A DNA stretch of 64,000 nt from an uncultured bacterium (GTDB taxonomy: Bacteria > Omnitrophota > Omnitrophia > Omnitrophales > Aquincolibacteriaceae), in assembly GCA_964373045.1 (NCBI GenBank), contig CAYJSI010000004.1:194-64193 (forward strand), given 5' to 3'. Under the pieces are notes generated by a model, which was not told the origin of the DNA, made no database searches, and was given only the letters and a program-made list of their open reading frames with translations. The translations under genes were made by a program, and so were the position numbers. Shown here piece after piece: positions 1,624-60,396 of this stretch. Position 1 is the stretch's first letter. Every line of letters begins with the position of its first letter.

Positions 1624-2264
1624 AGGAAACACCCGAACAAAAGAAAAAACGGGTTTTAAAAATTGTCGGGCGGCTGCGCAAGAGCAATCCGAATCCGAAA
1701 TGTGCCTTGGATTTTTCAAACCCTTTGGAGCTTCTGGTGGCGACGATTCTTTCGGCACAGTGTACGGATAAACGGGTGAACCTGGTAACGCCGGCTGTTT
1801 TTAAAAAATATAAGACCGCCCGGGATTATGCCAAGGCAAATCCCAGAGAGTTTGAAGAACTCATCCACTCAACGGGATTTTATAAGAACAAGGCTAAAAG
1901 TATTTTGGGGGCTGCGCGGGAAATCGTGAGGCGTTTTAAGGAGAAAATGCCGGATCGTCTCGAGGATCTTGTCACCCTTCCTGGGGTCGGAAGAAAAACG
2001 GCGAACGTGGTCCTGGGAAATGCCTTCGGGGTGCCTGGGCTCACAGTCGATACGCACATGATCCGCATCAATCGCCTGCTTGGGCTGACCAGAGAAAAGG
2101 ATCCGGTTAAAATCGAGTTCGACCTCATGAAGATCATACCCGAAAAGGAATGGACGGATTACTCGCATCGGATCATCCATCACGGCCGCGTGCGCTGCAT
2201 CGCTAGGCGCCCGGACTGCCCGCACTGCGAAATCAAAGACCTTTGCCCTTCCGCCAAAACCTAA
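1620..2264 (+). CDS. nth: endonuclease III (DNA glycosylase/AP lyase)
   Basis: HhH-GPD motif LPGVGRKTANVVL. C-terminal Cys cluster C-x6-C-x2-C-x5-C for a 4Fe-4S centre. Size fits (214 aa). The start overlaps the PolX stop. Confidence 0.9.
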   Translation: MKETPEQKKKRVLKIVGRLRKSNPNPKCALDFSNPLELLVATILSAQCTDKRVNLVTPAVFKKYKTARDYAKANPREFEELIHSTGFYKNKAKSILGAAREIVRRFKEKMPDRLEDLVTLPGVGRKTANVVLGNAFGVPGLTVDTHMIRINRLLGLTREKDPVKIEFDLMKIIPEKEWTDYSHRIIHHGRVRCIARRPDCPHCEIKDLCPSAKT

Positions 2265-3520
2265 TGAAAACCGCACCGGAAACAACAAGTCTTCTCAAAA
2301 ATCTGGCCCTTGAAATGGGATTTGATGTCGTAGGCGTGACGGTTCCCAAGGCGCTTCGCGAGGGCGAAGAAGCGATTCGCGCCTGGACGGAGGAAAAACG
2401 GCACGGCACCATGAAATATCTGGAGGATTTTGAAGCGCGCAGAAACCGTTTTTATCAAGATTTTCCGGATGCAAAAAGTGTGATTGTGCTCGGAGTGAAT
2501 TATTATTCGAACGAGAGGATAACACGTCATCCTGAGGAGTTTCGCCGCAGGCGAGACGACGAAGGATCTCGAGATTCTTCGTCCCGCAGCAGCGGGACTC
2601 AGAATGACGTTTACGGCCGTGTGGCGAGGTATGCGTGGGGCAAGGACTATCATCAGGTGATCCGGAAGAAGCATGAATTGTTGATTGAAAGGTTGAATGA
2701 AATATTTGTAAGGGCGAGGCAGGCCGTGCCCTTACGATTTCAGTCGTGCGTGGATACCCAGCCCCTCCCTGAGCGATTTGCCGCCAAGCAGGCCGGACTC
2801 GGCTTTATCGGAAAACATACGGGACTTTTAAGCCAAAAATTCGGGCCCTGGCTTTTTCTCTCGGAAATTGTGACCAATCTCGAACTCGAAGAAGATATGC
2901 CCTCTGAAGGAAATTGTGGAACATGCGTTCATTGTCAAAAAATTTGTCCGACCGGTGCGTTAGATGAGGATTACAAAATCGATGCAAAAAAATGCATTGC
3001 CTATCTTACGATCGAACACAAAGGAGTCATTGCGCGCGAGCTTCGTCCCAAGATCAAAAACTGGCTTTTTGGGTGTGACGAGTGCCTTGCGATCTGCCCT
3101 TTTACCTCCAAACAAAAAGAGGGAAGCTGGCCGGAACTCAAGGCCTCGGCCGGCTTCGGGGAATGGATCGATTTAAAAGAACTTTTCGAGATTCCATCCA
3201 ACGCCGCTTACGAACGAAAATTTTTTGGCACAGCGCTCATGCGTGTAAGCCGTAAGCAAATGCTTCGCAATGCCTGCCTTGTGCTCGGCAATATTGGCAG
3301 AGAAAATCCTGTAGGGGCGAGGCAGGCCGTGCCCTTACTTATGAAAGCCCTCAGGGATCCCGCTTCGCTTGTACGGCTTCACGCCGCCTGGGCGCTCGGC
3401 CAGCTTCCCTTTGAGGAGGCCAAAAAGGCCCTCAAGCGACACCAGCCCCTCGAAGAAGACACCGAGGTTTTAAGAGAGATCCGATCTTCTCTCACGCAGG
3501 CGTGCACAGTCATCCCATAA
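2264..3520 (+). CDS. queG: epoxyqueuosine reductase QueG (B12/4Fe-4S), with low-complexity and repeat-derived insertions
   Basis: The ATG overlaps the nth stop (TAATG). Ferredoxin-type motif CGTCVHCQKICPTGAL plus a second Cys cluster. HEAT-like C-terminus (LRDPASLVRLHAAWALGQL). It is longer than typical QueG because of RRRRDDEGSRDSSS and two copies of a 28-nt palindrome. Confidence 0.8.
   Translation: MKTAPETTSLLKNLALEMGFDVVGVTVPKALREGEEAIRAWTEEKRHGTMKYLEDFEARRNRFYQDFPDAKSVIVLGVNYYSNERITRHPEEFRRRRDDEGSRDSSSRSSGTQNDVYGRVARYAWGKDYHQVIRKKHELLIERLNEIFVRARQAVPLRFQSCVDTQPLPERFAAKQAGLGFIGKHTGLLSQKFGPWLFLSEIVTNLELEEDMPSEGNCGTCVHCQKICPTGALDEDYKIDAKKCIAYLTIEHKGVIARELRPKIKNWLFGCDECLAICPFTSKQKEGSWPELKASAGFGEWIDLKELFEIPSNAAYERKFFGTALMRVSRKQMLRNACLVLGNIGRENPVGARQAVPLLMKALRDPASLVRLHAAWALGQLPFEEAKKALKRHQPLEEDTEVLREIRSSLTQACTVIP
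2708..2735. repeat. GTAAGGGCGAGGCAGGCCGTGCCCTTAC hairpin element inside queG (copy 1)
   Basis: The 8-bp inverted repeat GTAAGGGC/GCCCTTAC is read directly. A near-identical copy lies at 3311-3338. It is translated in-frame as RARQAVPL. Confidence 0.7.
3311..3338. repeat. GTAGGGGCGAGGCAGGCCGTGCCCTTAC hairpin element inside queG (copy 2)
   Basis: 27 of 28 nt match 2708-2735. It is translated in-frame as GARQAVPL. Confidence 0.7.
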
Positions 3521-6855: not shown

Positions 6856-6883
6856 GTAGGGGCGACTCGCGAGTCGCCCGTAC
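6856..6883. repeat. GTAGGGGC-family palindromic element (short form)
   Basis: GTAGGGGCGACTCGCGAGTCGCCCGTAC is a near-perfect hairpin in the spacer before the AKR gene. Confidence 0.7.
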
Positions 6884-6890
6884 TACCGCC

Positions 6891-7859
6891 ATGAAACACC
6901 GCATTCTCGGGAAAACGGGTCTTCGGGTTTCCGAAGTCGGTTTTGGCGCCTGGGCGATCGGGGGAACAAGCTATGGTCCCACCCGCGATGAAGATTCGCT
7001 CGATGCCCTCGAGGCCGCCTGGGAATCCGGGGTTAACTTTTTTGATACGGCCGATACCTACGGCCACGGTCACAGCGAAACTCTTCTCAGCCGTTTCCTA
7101 AAAAATAAACCGCGCCATCAAACCATCATCGCTTCAAAGGTGGGCTGGGATTTTTATCACGGCGCCAGCCGCAAAAATTTCGATCTCACTTATGTGCGTT
7201 TTGCGCTTGAGCAAAGCCTGAAGCGACTTGAACTTGAGACGATCGATCTTTATCAGCTTCACAACCCTTCGATTGAATTGATTAAGCGGGGTGAGCTCGT
7301 CGGCCTGCTTGAGGAGTTCAAAAGGGAAGGGAAGATCCGTTTCATCGGAACGTCCATCCATAGCAAAGACGAGGCCTTTGCCGCGATGGAGGATCCGCGG
7401 GTGGATACGCTTCAACTTGTCTTCAATCTCCTCGATCAGCGTATGGCCGAAGAGGTATTTCCTGAAGCTCAAGCGAAAAATATCGGCCTGATCGTGCGCG
7501 AACCCTTGGCCTTCGGCATGCTTACGGGCAAATACACGGCGGATCACGAGTTTCACAAAATAGATCACAGGCGCCGCTTCATGCGGGAGCAGCTGGAGAA
7601 CGATCTTAAAAAAATTGAAGCCGTCAAAGGTGTTTTATCAACGAAACATTTGCCGCTTGTGCGGGCAGCGCTTGAGTTTATTTTGAATTTTTATTCCCTT
7701 TCCACTGTGATCCCCGGCGCTAAATCAAGGGCTCAAGTGCTGGAGAATGTTCAGGCATCGAATGATCCGAAACTTCGGATGGAGGAATTGCGGCGTTTGA
7801 GGGAACTTTATTTGAAAGAACCGATTTTTCGGGAAATATTAAAATTTAAAATAATGTAG
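6891..7859 (+). CDS. aldo/keto reductase
   Basis: ILGKTGLRVSEVGFGAWAIGG and DTADTYGHGHSE are AKR signatures. Confidence 0.85.
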   Translation: MKHRILGKTGLRVSEVGFGAWAIGGTSYGPTRDEDSLDALEAAWESGVNFFDTADTYGHGHSETLLSRFLKNKPRHQTIIASKVGWDFYHGASRKNFDLTYVRFALEQSLKRLELETIDLYQLHNPSIELIKRGELVGLLEEFKREGKIRFIGTSIHSKDEAFAAMEDPRVDTLQLVFNLLDQRMAEEVFPEAQAKNIGLIVREPLAFGMLTGKYTADHEFHKIDHRRRFMREQLENDLKKIEAVKGVLSTKHLPLVRAALEFILNFYSLSTVIPGAKSRAQVLENVQASNDPKLRMEELRRLRELYLKEPIFREILKFKIM

Positions 7860-7918
7860 GGGCGCACCCGTGTGTGCGCCCTACGGATAGACGGGCAGAT
7901 ACATGGGTCTGCCCCTAC
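7856..7918. repeat. GTAGGGGC-family palindromic element (full two-hairpin form)
   Basis: GTAGGGGCGCACCCGTGTGTGCGCCCTAC followed by GGATAGACGGGCAGATACATGGGTCTGCCCCTAC. The outer ends are inverted (GTAGGGG/CCCCTAC). Confidence 0.75.
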
Positions 7919-10717: not shown

Positions 10718-11815
10718 GTGCCTTCTCTCTGGCAAAAAATCCGCCTCGATTTTCCCATGGTAAAAAAATGGATTTACCTGGATCATGCCTCAGGGGGACC
10801 CATTCCGCGGCCCGTACTTCAAGCCTCCCGGCGCTATTTAAAAGAACATTTTGAATTGGGCGATCTCTCCTGGGCCGCGTGGATCAAACGCCGCGAGGAG
10901 GTCCGGAAAAAAGCAGCACGCTTGATCAACGCCGACCCCTCTGAAATTACATTTATTCAGAGCACCTCTCAGGGGATGAATCTTATTGCCGACCTTTTGG
11001 CGGATCAGGGCGCGGTTCTGACCAACGCAAGCGAATTTCCCGCGAGCACGCTTCCCTGGATTTGGCGGAAGGCCAGGATGATTTGGCAGAATCCCGAAAA
11101 TTCTGCCATCAGGCTTGATACGCTCAGGAAACTTTTGTCGCCTGAAGTTAAAACAATTCTTACGAGCTTCGTGCAATACGCGACCGGGTTTCGCCAGGAT
11201 TTGGAAGCCCTTGGCAGAATCAAAGGGAACCGCTTTCTGGTGGTCAATGCCACGCAGGGATTCGGCGCTTTTCCGATTAATGTGAAGCGCGCCAAAATCG
11301 ATTTCCTCTGCACCAATAGTTACAAGTGGCTTATGGCGGGCTACGGCGGCGGCATCCTTTATATGAAGAAGGATTGGATGCGAAAATTCAAACCCTCCCA
11401 AGTAGGGTGGCGGAGCATGCGGGAGCCTGAGCTCATGGACAATCGGCGCCTCGATCTTAAACCGGAGGCCTCCCGCTACGAACTTGGCTGCCCGAGTTTT
11501 CCCTCCATTTTTGCCTTGGGGGCGGCGGTGGATTATCTTTCGGAGATCGGCATCGAAAAAATCAGCCGCCGGATTTTAGAACTCACCGATTTCCTTATCG
11601 ACGGCCTTGAGCGAAGCGGGCTTGAAGTGGTTTCACCGCGCGAGCGGACGCATCGTTCGGGAATCGTTGTGTTTAAAATGAGCCACGCCGAAAAAGTATG
11701 CCGCCGGCTTCTTCGTGATCATATTTATGTCTCACCGCGCGGGGCCGGGATCCGCGTCGCGCCGCATTGTTATAATACATTTGAGGAAATTGAAACATTC
11801 CTAAATGCGCTGTAG
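10718..11815 (+). CDS. class V aminotransferase / cysteine desulfurase-like PLP enzyme
   Basis: Fold-type I PLP enzyme with a SYKW lysine region. It sits next to the MoeZ-like gene. Confidence 0.7.
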   Translation: MPSLWQKIRLDFPMVKKWIYLDHASGGPIPRPVLQASRRYLKEHFELGDLSWAAWIKRREEVRKKAARLINADPSEITFIQSTSQGMNLIADLLADQGAVLTNASEFPASTLPWIWRKARMIWQNPENSAIRLDTLRKLLSPEVKTILTSFVQYATGFRQDLEALGRIKGNRFLVVNATQGFGAFPINVKRAKIDFLCTNSYKWLMAGYGGGILYMKKDWMRKFKPSQVGWRSMREPELMDNRRLDLKPEASRYELGCPSFPSIFALGAAVDYLSEIGIEKISRRILELTDFLIDGLERSGLEVVSPRERTHRSGIVVFKMSHAEKVCRRLLRDHIYVSPRGAGIRVAPHCYNTFEEIETFLNAL

Positions 11816-11878
11816 GGGCGCACCTATGTGTGCGCCCGTTGTGCGGTCCACGAGTCGACACGTGGGTCGACCCCTGCA
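11812..11878. repeat. GTAGGGGC-family palindromic element
   Basis: GTAGGGGCGCACCTATGTGTGCGCCC ... GTCGACACGTGGGTCGACCCCTGCAGC. Confidence 0.75.
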
Positions 11879-14780: not shown

Positions 14781-14840
14781 CACCAAATCAGTTGGTGCCA
14801 GGCACCGTGCCAGGCACGGTGCCTGGCACCATTAGGGTTT
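14781..14840. repeat. GGTGCCWGGCACC tandem palindrome element (terminator-like)
   Basis: GGTGCCAGGCACCGTGCCAGGCACGGTGCCTGGCACCATTAGGGTTT immediately 3' of era. Confidence 0.8.
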
Positions 14841-19275: not shown

Positions 19276-20763
19276 GTGATCCGAAAAACCTCTCCTCAGG
19301 ATATTCAACCCTACCTTACGGATGCCTCTAACTTTCAAGGCGGTCATGCCGAGGGAGTTGCTTTTCCGGAGTCCGAGAAAGAAGTCGTTGAGTTTATAAA
19401 AGAGGCGCATGCACACGGAACCCCTGTAACTATTGCAGGGAATGGAACCGGTTTAACCGGCGCCCGCGTCCCGACAGGGGGCTGGGTGCTTGCCACGGAT
19501 CGCCTTTCAAAAATCAAGCGGATCGAAAAAGACCCGGTGCGAAGATCCTCTTACGCCGTTATCGAGCCGGGATGCCAGCTTAAAACCCTTCAAGACGCGC
19601 TTGGCTCGCTAGCTCTTTTTTATCCTCCGGACCCCACCTCCTTCAAATCTTTTTTGGGAGGCAATGTGGCCACGAACGCCTCGGGTCCGCGCTCCTTTCG
19701 CTATGGGCCGACGCGCGATTTCATTCGAAGATTGCGGATAGTACTGGCGGACGGATCCCTTCTTCATCTTGAGCGCGGAAAAATTTTTGCGAACGCCGTC
19801 GGTGAAATCGAAATCCCGGCCTCAGGTTCCAAAATTAAAATCAAGATCCCGAGTTATGCCATGCCTCCCATTAAACACACGGCGGGTTATTTTGCGAAAC
19901 CTAAGATGGATGCCATCGATCTTTTTATCGGGTCTGAGGGGACGCTGGGTATGGTGACAGAAATCGAAGTCGCCTTAGTGAATCCGCCCCGGGACTATTT
20001 TAGTTATGTCCTTTTTTTCGCAAGCGAGGAAGCTTCTTGGAATTTCGCGGAGGATGCGCGATTCGTGAGCCGCCGGCACCGGGGCGAGCGAAACGATGCC
20101 GCAATCCAAGCCCGCGCCTTGGAATATCTAGATGGCCCTTCTCTTGATTTCATCCGCGCAAAATATCCTACGGTGCCCCGTGAGGCCCGCGCCGCTATTT
20201 ATTTAGAGCAAGAGTGCCAGCCGGAAACGAAAGATTTATTGATCGATCGATGGGGCGCTCTCTTTGAAAAACATAAGGCGCTTGTGGAAGATGTGTGGCT
20301 GGGTGAAAGTGAGGAGGAACATGAAAAATTCAGAGCCTTCCGCCACGAAGTGCCGCTTGAAGTGAAGGCCTTCCTCGCCCAACACGGACAAAGCAAAGTC
20401 GGAACCGATATGGCGGTGCCTGAGAAGGCCTTTAAAGATTTAATGCTCTTTCAAAGAAAGCGACTGAATGACCTTGGGATTCGGAATATCACCTTTGGCC
20501 ACATCGGAGATTGCCATGTTCACCTCAATATTCTCGCGCAAAACGGGGAAGAGCATGCCCGGGCCTGGGGCCTCTACCATGAATTGATTCAAAAGGCCCT
20601 TCAGTTGGGGGGCACCATCGCCGCCGAGCATGGTGTCGGCAAGCTGAAAAAATGTTATCTTGTCGAAATGTTTGGCCAGAAGGGAATCGAAGAGATGGCG
20701 GCTGTCAAAAAAGCGTTTGACCCTAAGATAATCTTGGGGCGGGGGAATATATTGGATATGTAG
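19276..20763 (+). CDS. FAD-linked oxidase (GlcD/D-lactate dehydrogenase family)
   Basis: FAD_binding_4 motif VTIAGNGTGLTG. Confidence 0.8.
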   Translation: MIRKTSPQDIQPYLTDASNFQGGHAEGVAFPESEKEVVEFIKEAHAHGTPVTIAGNGTGLTGARVPTGGWVLATDRLSKIKRIEKDPVRRSSYAVIEPGCQLKTLQDALGSLALFYPPDPTSFKSFLGGNVATNASGPRSFRYGPTRDFIRRLRIVLADGSLLHLERGKIFANAVGEIEIPASGSKIKIKIPSYAMPPIKHTAGYFAKPKMDAIDLFIGSEGTLGMVTEIEVALVNPPRDYFSYVLFFASEEASWNFAEDARFVSRRHRGERNDAAIQARALEYLDGPSLDFIRAKYPTVPREARAAIYLEQECQPETKDLLIDRWGALFEKHKALVEDVWLGESEEEHEKFRAFRHEVPLEVKAFLAQHGQSKVGTDMAVPEKAFKDLMLFQRKRLNDLGIRNITFGHIGDCHVHLNILAQNGEEHARAWGLYHELIQKALQLGGTIAAEHGVGKLKKCYLVEMFGQKGIEEMAAVKKAFDPKIILGRGNILDM

Positions 20764-20822
20764 GGGCCGACCCATGTGTCGGCCCTGTGGTCCACGGGCG
20801 GACACGCGGGTCCGCCCCCTAC
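20760..20822. repeat. GTAGGGGC-family palindromic element
   Basis: GTAGGGGCCGACCCATGTGTCGGCCC ... GGGCGGACACGCGGGTCCGCCCCCTAC. Confidence 0.75.
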
Positions 20823-21884: not shown

Positions 21885-23126
21885 ATGAGCCAAAAGTCCC
21901 CCATCATTCGAAAAAGCTTTGGCCTTAAAGAAGAGATCCGTCCGCAGCTCAAAGCCAGCTATCACAGCAACTTAATCGATCAGATTAAAACGAACGGATT
22001 TCAAATGAAATCCGGCCGCTTGACGCTCAAGCTCGCTGAGGAGTTTGGTTTTTGCTACGGAGTCGACCGGGCCATCGACTATGCCTATGAGACCCGTGCC
22101 CAATTTCCGGGCAAGCGAATTTTTATCACCAATGAAATCATCCACAATCCCCGCGTGAACGCCAAGCTTCAGGAAATGGGGATCCAGTTTCTCTCGGGCC
22201 CCTACGCTTGCGGGATTACCGCGGACGACATCCGCGAGGATGACGTCGTGATTTTCCCCGCCTTTGGAACCACGCTAAAAGAGCTCGATCAGCTTCAAAA
22301 ACGAGGCTGCGTGCTTGTGGACACGACCTGTGGCTCGGTGATGAGTGTGTGGAAGCGGGTCGAGTCTTACAGCCGTGATGCCTTTACCTCCGTCATTCAC
22401 GGCAAGTATGATCACGAAGAGACCATGGCCACAAGCTCTCGGGCCACCCAGTATCCCGGCGGTAAATATCTTATTGTGCGTGACAAAGTCCAGGCACAAA
22501 CCGTTTGTGATTATATTGAGGACCGGGGTGAGCGCGAAGCCTTCTTAAAGGAATTTGCCTCGAGTCTATCCGCCGGTTTTGATCCTGATCAGGATCTTGC
22601 GCATCTCGGCTGCGCGAATCAAACGACCATGCTTTCGAGCGAATCCTTGGAGATTGCCAGTATGCTTCAGGAATCCATGCGCAAGCGTTTTGGCGCCGAG
22701 GAGCTCCCCAAGCGATTCCGTCATTTTGATACGATTTGTTCGGCGACTCAGGAGCGCCAGGACGCTGTTTTTAAGCTCGTTCGCGCCGGTGTGGACCTCA
22801 TGATTGTGGTGGGCGGTTACAATTCGAGCAATACGGGGCACCTGGTGGAAATATCCCTCGATTTTTGTCCCGCCTTTCACGTGAAGGATGCCGAGTGCAT
22901 TATTTCGAGGAATCTCATTCAGCACAAAAAAGTTTTCAGCTCGGAGATTATCGAAACTGCAAACTGGCTTCCCGCGGGAGAGATGAGAATCGGTGTGACA
23001 GCCGGGGCCTCGACTCCGAATCGTGTGATTGAAGAAGTGATCGAACGAATCATTGCCGTAGGGGCCGACCCGCGTGTCGGCCCGTCAATCACAGGGCGGA
23101 CACATGGGTCCGCCCCTACGTTATGA
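21885..23126 (+). CDS. ispH: 4-hydroxy-3-methylbut-2-enyl diphosphate reductase IspH (long form); C-terminus runs into a palindromic repeat
   Basis: Conserved Cys residues are present, along with HNPRVN, the long insert, and TAGASTP near the end. The last ~22 aa are encoded by repeat 23058-23119. Confidence 0.85.
   Translation: MSQKSPIIRKSFGLKEEIRPQLKASYHSNLIDQIKTNGFQMKSGRLTLKLAEEFGFCYGVDRAIDYAYETRAQFPGKRIFITNEIIHNPRVNAKLQEMGIQFLSGPYACGITADDIREDDVVIFPAFGTTLKELDQLQKRGCVLVDTTCGSVMSVWKRVESYSRDAFTSVIHGKYDHEETMATSSRATQYPGGKYLIVRDKVQAQTVCDYIEDRGEREAFLKEFASSLSAGFDPDQDLAHLGCANQTTMLSSESLEIASMLQESMRKRFGAEELPKRFRHFDTICSATQERQDAVFKLVRAGVDLMIVVGGYNSSNTGHLVEISLDFCPAFHVKDAECIISRNLIQHKKVFSSEIIETANWLPAGEMRIGVTAGASTPNRVIEEVIERIIAVGADPRVGPSITGRTHGSAPTL
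23058..23119. repeat. GTAGGGGC-family palindromic element (forms the 3' end of the ispH ORF)
   Basis: GTAGGGGCCGACCCGCGTGTCGGCCC ... GGGCGGACACATGGGTCCGCCCCTAC. Confidence 0.75.
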
Positions 23127-29692: not shown

Positions 29693-29720
29693 AATGTAGC
29701 TTAAAAAGCTTCAGGCAAAT

Positions 29721-29757
29721 GGTGCCAGGCACGGTGCCAGGCACCGTGCCTGGCACC
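29721..29757. repeat. GGTGCCWGGCACC tandem palindrome element
   Basis: GGTGCCAGGCACGGTGCCAGGCACCGTGCCTGGCACCATTAGG, between queD and addB. Confidence 0.8.
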
Positions 29758-29767
29758 ATTAGGTTCT

Positions 29768-41220: not shown

Positions 41221-42357
41221 ATGAATTTATCCGATTTTGATTTTAAACTTCCCGAAGGGCGTATCGCGGTTTTCCCGCCCGAAGATCGAGCCAGCGCCCG
41301 TCTCCTCAGAGTCGACAAACAGTCAGGAACTATTTCGCACCACGTTTTCCGCGACCTTCCTCAATTTCTTCAAGCCGGAGATCTGCTTGTGCTGAATGAT
41401 ACGAAAGTGATTCCCGCAAGAATTTTCGGCCAAAAAGAGACCGGAGGCCGGGTGGAGGCCCTCCTCCTTGAGGATTTGGGAGAAGGGAAGTGGGAAGCCT
41501 TGCTCCGTTCCGGAGGACGAATTAAAAAAAATTCGATGCTCGCTTTTGGAGAAAACGGCCTGAGGGTTGAGGCCGAGGTTTTAGATGACGCAAGGCCGGA
41601 TTCAGGGGAACGCCTTTTGGATTTCAATGTAGGGGCCGATCTGCGCCCGCCCACCGGCGAGGCGGGTGTCGGCCCGCATACGGGCGGACACATGGGTCCG
41701 TCCCTACGACAAATTTTTAAAAAAATCGGGCATATACCCCTGCCGCCCTACATCGACCGCCCGGATTCTCCGATCGATCGGAAAATGTACCAAACGGTTT
41801 TTGCTGAAAAAGAGGGGGCGGTAGCATCGCCCACCGCCGGTCTTCATTTTGATGAAAAACTTCTCGATAAGATTCGAGCCAAAGGAATCGAAATAGCTTT
41901 TGTCACACTTCACGTCAGTTACGGGACGTTTCAGCCCATTGCAGTCGAAAATTTAGCCGAGCACAAAATGTTTGAAGAACGATTTGAAATCACTGCCGAA
42001 ACTGCCGGCCAAATCAACCGTGCCTTGAGCGAAAAGCGGCGAATCATTGCTTGCGGGACTACGGTGGTAAGGGTATTAGAGTCTGCCTGTAGGGGCGCGG
42101 TCCCCGCGCCCGGGACTCAGGGCGGGGGAACTTTACCCCTGCAACCCATGAAGGGCAGGACCCGGCTTTTTATTTATCCTCCCTATGAATTTAAAATCGT
42201 GCAGGGGCTGATTACCAATTTTCATCTGCCCAAAAGTTCTCTTCTGCTTTTGGTGAGCGCGTTCTTGGGCCGCCAAAAATTATTAAATGCCTATGACGAA
42301 GCGATCCGTGAAGGATATCGTTTTTATAGTTACGGGGATGCGATGGTGATCTTGTGA
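41221..42357 (+). CDS. queA: S-adenosylmethionine:tRNA ribosyltransferase-isomerase QueA, carrying two in-frame palindromic-element insertions
   Basis: Collinear with E. coli QueA (GHIPLPPYIDRPD, TAGLHFDE, TNFHLP, YRFYSYGDAM). It is about 25-30 aa longer, with the extra residues at 41629-41707 and 42089-42146. Confidence 0.9.
   Translation: MNLSDFDFKLPEGRIAVFPPEDRASARLLRVDKQSGTISHHVFRDLPQFLQAGDLLVLNDTKVIPARIFGQKETGGRVEALLLEDLGEGKWEALLRSGGRIKKNSMLAFGENGLRVEAEVLDDARPDSGERLLDFNVGADLRPPTGEAGVGPHTGGHMGPSLRQIFKKIGHIPLPPYIDRPDSPIDRKMYQTVFAEKEGAVASPTAGLHFDEKLLDKIRAKGIEIAFVTLHVSYGTFQPIAVENLAEHKMFEERFEITAETAGQINRALSEKRRIIACGTTVVRVLESACRGAVPAPGTQGGGTLPLQPMKGRTRLFIYPPYEFKIVQGLITNFHLPKSSLLLLVSAFLGRQKLLNAYDEAIREGYRFYSYGDAMVIL
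41629..41707. repeat. GTAGGGGC-family palindromic element inside queA
   Basis: GTAGGGGCCGATCTGCGCCCGCCCACCGGCGAGGCGGGTGTCGGCCCGCATACGGGCGGACACATGGGTCCGTCCCTAC. Confidence 0.75.
42089..42146. repeat. GTAGGGGC-family palindromic element inside queA (second copy)
   Basis: GTAGGGGCGCGGTCCCCGCGCCC ... CCCCTGCAAC; the end type matches the element at 11812. Confidence 0.65.
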
Positions 42358-50643: not shown

Positions 50644-50760
50644 GTAGGGGTCGACCCATGTGTCGACCCGTGTTATCTCGCCCACCCATATTGGGCGGGG
50701 CAACCCCGCCCCTACAATCCAATTGCATTATGACGGGCAGACACGCGGGTCTGCCCCTAC
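50644..50760. repeat. compound GTAGGGGC-family palindromic element (three hairpins)
   Basis: GTAGGGGTCGACCCATGTGTCGACCC ... GCCCACCCATATTGGGCGGGG ... GACGGGCAGACACGCGGGTCTGCCCCTAC. Confidence 0.75.
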
Positions 50761-60283: not shown

Positions 60284-60315
60284 GCATTCGTCATTCCCGC
60301 GCATAGGGCGCCAGG

Positions 60316-60396
60316 CACCTTCTGGGTTTTGAAAGCACGCGGGGATGACGTTGTAGGGTGCCAGGCTCCGACGGTGCCTGGCACCATCTGGGTTTC
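60316..60396. repeat. two GGTGCCWGGCACC-family palindromes with TCTGGGTTT tails
   Basis: GCGCCAGGCACCTTCTGGGTTTT ... GGGTGCCAGGCTCCGACGGTGCCTGGCACCATCTGGGTTTCGG. Confidence 0.75.

Follow-up and report, generated by a model that had tools for sequence, protein, structure and literature searches.

Paired 28-nucleotide hairpins in the queG gene of an uncultured Omnitrophota bacterium and their probable origin from GTAG-type repetitive extragenic palindromes

The gene for epoxyqueuosine reductase (queG) in an uncultured bacterium of the family Aquincolibacteriaceae (phylum Omnitrophota) contains two nearly identical hairpins of 28 nucleotides (nt), both translated in the same frame. We analyzed them in a stretch of 64,000 nt, here called the window, which covers positions 194 to 64,193 of the forward strand of contig CAYJSI010000004.1 (GenBank assembly GCA_964373045.1). 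Comparison with metagenomic sequences indicates that the two 28-mers are degenerate members of a real family of GTAG-type repetitive extragenic palindromes (REPs), whose core is GTAG followed by GGGCGAGG-loop-CCTCGCCC, often with CTAC or TTAC added. Their origin from this family, with one diverged ancestor common to both copies, is the reading that we consider probable. In-frame GTAG REPs within genes were already described in 2013, and the queG pair is an example of this known phenomenon and not a new type of element.

The queG hairpins and the GTAG-type REP family

The gene and its two hairpins are located as follows.

2264–3520, + strand: queG coding sequence, 418 amino acids from the ATG at 2264, with Pfam domains DUF1730, Fer4_16 and HEAT_2
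2708–2735, + strand: hairpin copy 1 (site 1), GTAAGGGCGAGGCAGGCCGTGCCCTTAC, encoding VRARQAVPL (residues 156–164 of the 425-residue reading frame), with the degenerate head GTAA
3311–3338, + strand: hairpin copy 2 (site 2), GTAGGGGCGAGGCAGGCCGTGCCCTTAC, encoding VGARQAVPL (residues 357–365), with the canonical GTAG head; a T at 3310 completes a 29-nt shared unit

The mechanical open reading frame (ORF) runs from a TTG at 2243 to 3520 and gives the 425-residue numbering used here, while gene callers pick the ATG at 2264 and a product of 418 residues. Its assignment to QueG is based on the Pfam domains QueG_DUF1730, Fer4_16 and HEAT_2, all present in ORF 2243–3520, and its closest homologues are QueG proteins of Candidatus Omnitrophota at 63–67% identity. 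The allele with both 28-mers is real and no assembly artefact, since Logan contigs from three independent sequencing runs (ERR4904391, ERR4904390 and ERR3478686) are 100% identical to the window across queG and contain both copies. The 418-residue product is called identically on all three contigs, and NCBI also has a record of it, from a contig of 68.7 kb. The 90%-identity protein cluster that contains this product (P0241 / P0242) has as its representative an unrelated 54-residue VapB-like fragment labelled DegV, which is a clustering artefact.

An earlier note, made from the letters of this DNA, had reported two 28-nt hairpins with 27 of 28 positions identical, about 600 nt apart and in one frame (RARQAVPL and GARQAVPL). 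This description holds: the copies differ at a single position, lie 603 nt apart from start to start, and both begin at a codon boundary of ORF 2243–3520. Each 28-mer has the geometry of a 13 + AG + 13 palindrome with two arm mismatches. Six of the eight positions of the GGGCGAGG / CCGTGCCC stem are paired, the two mismatches being adjacent, and the predicted fold pairs head with tail (9 bp, internal loop, 2 bp), with folding energies of −19.9 kcal/mol for copy 1 (z = −3.85) and −17.8 kcal/mol for copy 2 (z = −2.47). Each element therefore has the layout of a single 24-nt unit plus a 4-nt complementary tail and is not an inverted doublet. An Rfam search of the window returned only tRNA, and nothing at the queG hairpins.

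Across the 64-kb window, the 28-mer with up to three mismatches had no match beyond the two in queG (shuffle expectation 0), and the 20-nt core with up to five mismatches likewise matched nothing else. A dispersed family of the exact 28-mer or its 20-nt core was rejected as a candidate; the core gave eight single matches in unrelated phyla, lacking both GTAR/YTAC flanks and the stem, and these were attributed to chance. A parent with a perfect stem was predicted from the 5′ arm in the window, and metagenome contigs were searched with the query GTAGGGGCGAGG-N(2-10)-CCTCGCCC, which was found in at least 120 metagenome stretches. The mobile hairpin proposed in the earlier note is thereby borne out as a dispersed family in its perfect-stem version, and the GTAG-GGGCGAGG REP family is, as judged from these contigs, widespread in environmental bacteria. 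Among the matches listed (164 units in 133 placements), the loop is CATG in 68 units, a CTAC or TTAC tail produces 28-nt palindromes in 55, a pyrimidine occupies position −1 in 132, and the host contigs range from 40 to 73% in guanine-cytosine (GC) content. The placements comprise 102 single units, 26 full 28-nt palindromes and five doublets. The T at position −1 of both queG 28-mers fits the pyrimidine preference of the family. The sequence of the GGGCGAGG family was not found in literature text, and its peptide is absent from the supplements of PMC3733652.

Relative to the consensus palindrome GTAGGGGCGAGGCATGCCTCGCCCCTAC, copy 2 is identical at 24 and copy 1 at 23 of 28 positions. Identity rises to 26/28 when variants occurring in natural family members are counted, namely the CAGG loop (locus L122) and the TTAC tail (loci L032 and L062). 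What is left is the sole window-specific change.

3329–3330 (also 2726–2727 in copy 1), + strand: GT where the family has TC, breaking two stem pairs and changing Ser (TCG) to Val (GTG)

None of the retrieved family members carries this stem change. The QueG alignment column at the affected codon holds L, I or V in 110/117 homologues and never Ser. In the frame used by the window, the family peptide reads VGAR(H/Q)ASPL, and its 3′ arm is similar to A-[ILV]-P-[YL]-L, the HEAT motif, at the peptide level and also at the DNA level (family GCC TCG CCC YTA C vs. native-type GCC GTN CCN YTN C).

The 5′ arm TGTAGGGGCGA is identical to the head of other GTAG hairpins in the window, including one complete intergenic unit.

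6856–6883, + strand: intergenic single unit GTAGGGGCGACTCGCGAGTCGCCCGTAC, composed of GTAG, an 8-nt stem, a 4-nt loop, an 8-nt stem and NTAC

This unit has a perfect 8-bp stem and closely precedes an aldo/keto-reductase-like ORF; in layout and length it matches the queG 28-mers, but its stem is another, compensated one. Its alignment with copy 2 scored 12, against a maximum of 11 for a null set of 3000 random 32-mers. The kinship with intergenic elements that had been claimed for the queG hairpins thus stands for TGTAGGGGCGA and the 28-nt architecture shared with the 6856 unit, and falls for the stem, where GGGCGAGG differs from the GGGCNGAC of the doublets in the window.

Family members are read in frame elsewhere. 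A type IIG restriction-modification methylase of an unrelated organism (L062) has a REP unit translated as VGARHASPL, with real Pfam domains on either side, and the segment around this unit has 36 residues vs. 28 in 77/109 homologues, a near-clean net gain of 24 nt. A TAG or TAA interrupts one of the three frames of the REP unit, and compared with random positions the family is under-represented in long ORFs of metagenomes, so that the idea of a hairpin which preferentially survives in frame reduces to survivorship. In an alternative complex III operon at a further metagenome locus (L088, Ga0315277_10099319), a unit of the GGGCGAGG family separates the NrfD-like part (ActC) from the ActD part; a single open frame spans ActC–ActD there, either as a gene fusion or as a frame that reads through an intergenic REP.

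Hairpin-encoded residues in QueG

Orthologue comparisons were based on 120 listed QueG homologues and profile scoring on 117 orthologues. The segment around site 2 (LGN...KAL) has 17 residues in 118/120 homologues and 23 in the window, a net gain of 6 residues or 18 nt, and the segment around site 1 has 16 residues in 105/120 homologues and 21 in the window, a net gain of 5 residues or 15 nt.

2708–2722, + strand: extra 15 nt at site 1 (VRARQ), net +5 residues, one of several equal placements
3308–3325, + strand: truly extra 18 nt at site 2 (PVGARQ), best-scoring placement by profile scoring

A length of 28 nt is not divisible by 3, and only 15 and 18 nt were gained, so the copies are not the 28-nt in-frame inserts that they had been taken for. 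As aligned with the orthologues, they are not clean insertions, and 10–13 nt of each copy overlay codons that correspond to native residues. A clean insertion of 24 or 28 nt is disfavoured, as it would require additional native losses of two and three residues in segments of fixed length (118/120 and 105/120).

At site 2, the window has GRENPVGARQAVPLLMKAL where orthologues have GRx-EA[ILV]P[YL]L-xKAL. The codons of the 3′ arm, GCC GTG CCC TTA C (AVPL), are in register with the motif A-[ILV]-P-[YL]-L that opens a HEAT helix. This motif is conserved in 118/120 homologues and in QueG of B. subtilis, none of them with the palindrome; the exact AVPLL occurs natively in several orthologues. Alignment with the B. 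subtilis protein (PDB 5D08) leaves the same 6-residue gap. The profile gave 36.4 bits when PVGARQ was deleted and 34.5 bits when NPVGAR was deleted, and deletion of ARQAVP cost about 14 bits, AVPLLMKAL being scored as native. Downstream of the extra 18 nt, GCC GTG CCC TTA CTT (AVPLL) occupies the native helix start. In a structure model by AlphaFold (AF2; mean predicted local distance difference test, pLDDT, 76), residues P356–Q361 are modelled as an N-terminal extension of helix 356–370.

Site 1 is a variable loop. Profile scores of 25.4–26.7 bits leave the possible placements indistinguishable, and AF2 locates the site at the end of helix 136–157 and in the loop before strand 166–168, outside the HEAT domain. 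Some orthologues natively have GVPLR or FPLK there, and in one (L010) the codons GGC GTG CCT TTG CGC (GVPLR) align codon for codon with GCC GTG CCC TTA CGA of the window. A 9-nt stretch, GGCAGGCCG, common to L010 and site 2 was judged coincidental, as it is in another reading frame.

These alignments bear directly on the possibility that VGARQAVPL is a native, conserved peptide repeat of QueG, such as a HEAT consensus, with nucleotide identity as a by-product. The earlier note had named such a peptide, conserved without the palindrome, as the observation that would speak against a mobile hairpin. What was found divides the 28-mer in two: AVPL(L) at site 2 is conserved as described above and several orthologues even match it exactly, while VGARQ or NPVGAR occurs in none of the 120 homologues, site 1 is without the motif in 105/120 and is not part of the HEAT domain, and an identity of 27/28 nt that includes rare codons cannot follow from protein conservation. 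The orthologue alignment refutes a native repeat for the 5′ half and for the whole of the site-1 copy, and as an account of the pair it is almost certainly wrong.

QueG had also been noted to be longer than typical. The 425 residues indeed exceed most of the 120 homologues, which range from 304 to 431 residues and mostly have 345–400, yet the 28-mer sites supply only 5 + 6 of the extra residues. Most of the remainder comes from a separate palindrome.

2523–2610, + strand: compound palindrome of 88 nt, in frame in queG, about residues 94–123 (about 30 residues), −51 kcal/mol, z = −5.25

Its outer stem, ACGTCATCCTGAG...CTCAGAATGACGT, encloses three inner hairpins. The QueG loop that contains it has 36 residues vs. 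a mode of 12 in homologues (range 11–60), and AF2 models residues 89–119 as disordered (pLDDT <50). The same loop holds other, unrelated repeat-like peptides in orthologues, and no second copy of the 88-nt palindrome was found in the window.

Origin of the pair

Four deviations from the family consensus are common to copies 1 and 2, which points to one diverged ancestor. Their identity spans exactly 29 nt, that is, one upstream T plus the 28-mer, and extends no further downstream. With junctions marked by arrows, the 29-nt unit at site 2 has C↓T at either end (aatcC↓T GTAG...TTAC↓Ttatg), and its junctions at site 1 are T↓T and C↓g. The chance that four identical 3′-arm codons arose independently is 0.009 under the codon usage of the genome, in which GTA (7%) and TTA (9%) are rare, so an independent native origin of the two 3′ arms is unlikely. 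REP-associated tyrosine transposases (RAYTs) cleave at a C↓T that is located 5′ or 3′ of a REP and leave the joined strand directly next to the T (PMC8266576). From this cutting preference, together with C↓T bounds at site 2 only, we infer site 2 as donor and site 1 as recipient; the direction is evenly balanced between right and wrong, because such boundaries would coincide by chance about once in 16 cases.

The probable REP origin would have proceeded in three events. First, a REP unit would have been grafted at site 2 with its 3′ arm (family ...ASPL) placed over native codons of similar sequence (...AVPL); this may have been a single step of microhomology-guided integration, or an insertion after which two similar 13-mers collapsed into one. 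The outcome would be a chimera in which the Val codon breaks the stem; full insertion and subsequent selection for Ser to Val would be the alternative at this site, and we give the chimera, in which the REP 3′ arm came to lie over native codons, an equal chance of being true or false. Second, the 29-nt unit (T plus 28-mer) would have been copied 603 nt upstream into the variable surface loop, replacing about 14 nt there, with a RAYT-type HUH transposase cutting C↓T on single-stranded DNA as the likely copying agent. Third, a G-to-A change at position 4 would have turned GTAG of copy 1 into GTAA. The inserts would have been tolerated because they are placed in a loop and at a helix N-terminus, and no function is implied for them.

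The 28-mers could alternatively stem from two independent insertions of an unseen master subfamily that had the exact sequence, with its CAGG loop, GT mismatch and TTAC tail, in which case the match between AVPL and the HEAT motif would only explain why the insertion was tolerated. Only 64 kb of the genome is visible, and zero copies in the other 62.7 kb permits up to about one per 20 kb genome-wide; REP families are normally genome-wide with two units in some ORFs (PMC3733652), and each of the loop and tail deviations exists singly in natural family members. However, two adjacent stem mismatches would be unusual in a REP master, and here they fall on the very codon that needs L, I or V at site 2, as expected if the change arose at that site. 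Two copies in one gene of 1.3 kb and none in the remaining 62.7 kb would also be improbable under random insertion, the C↓T...C↓T bounds occur at site 2 only, and the exact sequence is absent from all collections scanned. We consider such a master unlikely.

Another potential source is the gene itself. Quasi-palindrome template-switch mutation (the Ripley model) can create or perfect an inverted repeat beside existing sequence, and such a switch could have copied the complement of the native AVPL codons into a 5′ arm, with gene conversion duplicating the product and the likeness to REPs being coincidental. The complementarity between the 5′ arm and native codons would be explained in this way (11 of 13 arm positions are complementary), the site-2 3′ arm does behave as native sequence, and 13 nt together with a 2-nt spacer add up to the net gain of 15 nt at site 1; a perfect palindrome would likewise encode VRARQAVPL, so the two mismatches are synonymous with respect to it. 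The template switch leaves unexplained, however, the exact 11-nt REP head TGTAGGGGCGA that copy 2 shares with units of the window, a family membership by which the whole 28-mer is 24–26/28 identical to sequences in at least 120 metagenome contigs, and the existence of a second copy. A templated copy of GCCCTTAC would moreover yield GTAAGGGC, and the site with the native motif has GTAG instead; site 2 gained 18 nt and not 15, and gene conversion needs flanking homology, while identity ends after exactly 29 nt. An endogenous origin is therefore very improbable.

Two near-perfectly conserved 28-bp palindromes with stable predicted hairpins might also be selected sites acting in cis, for instance a binding pair for a dimeric protein, a dif-like pair of 28-bp recombination sites, or mRNA hairpins that control expression or decay of queG, and REPs elsewhere can affect mRNA stability and bind proteins (PMC3733652). 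Against such a role, the palindromes are found in no orthologue, the window-specific change weakens the hairpin, Rfam detected nothing, and REP membership fully explains the sequence. The DNA between the copies encodes the conserved Fe-S core, and recombination would destroy the gene. A selected role of this kind is hardly credible. A dif/Xer-like 28-bp site in particular was rejected, given the conserved gene core between the copies and the REP membership, and a template/variable repeat pair of a diversity-generating retroelement was rejected because the repeats are far too short.

Several observations weigh against a REP origin followed by local copying. No 28-mer or 20-nt core beyond chance matches was present in 185,579 species-representative genomes, a set that does not include the source genome; viral contigs yielded no 28-mer, and metagenome contigs yielded no 26-nt version of it. 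With no further copies in the other 62.7 kb of the window, multi-copy status in the source genome is unproven. The C↓T bounds would be expected by chance in about 1 of 16 cases, and to our knowledge no REP family has been shown in experiments to integrate at a new site through a RAYT. Under the pruning rule of Di Nocera et al., a stem with two adjacent mismatches would be discarded. All retrieved contigs carry an identical queG, with no pre-insertion allele among them, so that junctions, sequence of events and overlay mechanism are reconstructed from orthologues of only 63–67% identity. Pfam identified no RAYT (Y1 transposase) among 20 small and mid-size ORFs of the window. This last absence from 64 kb says little, since RAYTs are usually single-copy per genome (PMC5581495).

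Other palindromes of the window, related systems and implications

Beyond queG, the window contains further palindromes, several of them within or at the ends of genes.

7856–7918, 11812–11877, 20760–20822, 23058–23119, 41629–41707 and 50644–50760: inverted REP doublets (REPIN-like)
41221–42357: queA, with in-frame GTAG-hairpin inserts at 41629–41707 (79 nt, +22 residues) and 42089–42142 (54 nt, +11 residues)
21885–23126: ispH, with a REP doublet at 23058–23119 (62 nt) encoding its C-terminal tail
14793–14831, 29718–29760 and 60302–60390: separate palindrome family, (T)GGTGCCAGGCACCGTGCC / GGCACGGTGCCTGGCACC(A)

The doublets are laid out as GTAGGGGC-N-GACCC..GTGTC-N-GCCC, a spacer and the inverted unit, with a nested extra hairpin in each of those at 41629 and 50644. 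In three of them, the TAG of the GTAG head is the stop codon of the upstream ORF (7857–7859, 11813–11815 and 20761–20763, for ORFs ending at 7859, 11815 and 20763). The earlier note had linked the queG hairpins with inserts in queA and a tail of ispH, and both exist: QueA has two in-frame hairpin inserts, and the IspH tail is encoded by a hairpin. A QueA relative of 63% identity (P0122) has inserts of 8 and 22 residues at the two corresponding sites, which are either insertion hot spots or old shared events. Homology of IspH to solved structures stops at residue 392, exactly where the doublet starts, and the last 22 residues, VGADPRVGPSITGRTHGSAPTL, are hairpin-encoded up to the stop. The (T)GGTGCCAGGCACCGTGCC family has perfect arms of 19–21 nt in two copies, and all three copies are located in short gaps between same-strand ORFs; these palindromes may be terminators or another class of REP.

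The five in-frame palindromic inserts of the window compare as follows.

queG site 1: element 28 nt, net gain +15 nt
queG site 2: element 28 nt, net gain +18 nt
queG variable loop: element 88 nt, net gain about +72 nt
queA site 1: element 79 nt, net gain +66 nt
queA site 2: element 54 nt, net gain +33 nt

In all five, the net gain is 10–21 nt short of the element length, as measured against orthologues of about 65% identity. This shortfall, which contrasts with the near-clean unit of the L062 methylase, hints at replacement-type integration in this lineage. A doubtful generalization would be that REP hairpins of this lineage enter genes not by simple insertion but in exchange for a few native codons with microhomology to one of the REP arms, and that the queG pair records a local 29-nt copy from C↓T to C↓T by a RAYT-type enzyme.

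The closest known elements are the GTAG-tagged REPs of Di Nocera, De Gregorio & Rocco (2013), which occur as in-frame units inside genes of known proteins, sometimes two per ORF and most of all in Opitutus terrae, a bacterium of the Planctomycetes-Verrucomicrobia-Chlamydiae (PVC) group (PMC3733652). They are defined by a stem of 5–13 bp, a loop of 2–20 nt and at most about one stem mismatch; their heads commonly donate TAG stops to upstream ORFs, and some families have degenerate heads (PMC3733652). The elements of the window resemble them in the terminal GTAG, a GC-rich stem of about 8 bp, a 4-nt loop and a total of 20–40 bp, as well as in having sub-families with alternative complementary stems and in the TAG stops at 7859, 11815 and 20763. 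In contrast, the queG stem has two adjacent mismatches, copy 1 begins with GTAA, and the net gain is smaller than the unit, part of which stands in for native codons. REP/RAYT (TnpA_REP) systems, or REPtrons (Nunvar 2010, PMC2817692; Messing 2012, PMC3479197; Corneloup 2021, PMC8266576), offer a further parallel, with GTAG resembling their guide-like tetranucleotide 5′ of the hairpin and the cleavage of single-stranded DNA by RAYTs at C↓T resembling the bounds of the 29-nt unit at queG site 2. Unlike these systems, the window has no RAYT among the 20 ORFs tested, and the queG units are known here from their sequence.

REPINs were reportedly described by Bertels and Rainey in 2011 as REP doublets that form long hairpins. 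The window doublets at 7856, 20760, 23058, 41629 and 50644 are of this type, which has been the subject of population modelling (PMC8049555), and are in frame in queA and ispH. The queG 28-mers, in contrast, are single units in which the tail pairs with the head, and they do not join one REP to a second, inverted one across a spacer. Rickettsia palindromic elements (RPEs), which Ogata and colleagues are said to have found inserted in frame in protein-coding genes in 2000, are similar only functionally, as palindromic repeats that persist in working genes and add peptide to loops or surfaces. They differ in being longer (CGTC-type or about 100–150 bp), rickettsial, unrelated in sequence and described as additions and not as partial replacements of native residues, whereas the queG units are 28-nt, GTAG-type elements of Omnitrophota.

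In vitro, RAYTs are able to cut REP DNA and rejoin it, but integration at a new site is not known to have been observed, and the queG locus offers a copy pair with exact 29-nt boundaries that match C↓T at one site only. If the replacement reading is true, the locus would be a natural snapshot of REP mobilisation, and a REP arm would have been recruited directly as codons of a conserved motif, here the A-x-P-L of a HEAT helix. More generally, intragenic hairpin inserts lengthen proteins and break short-read assemblies, and they can upset protein clustering and annotation. In queG, a conserved structural motif coincides with part of a selfish hairpin, and the conflict between them appears to have gone in favour of the protein, in that the stem was broken in restoring Val.

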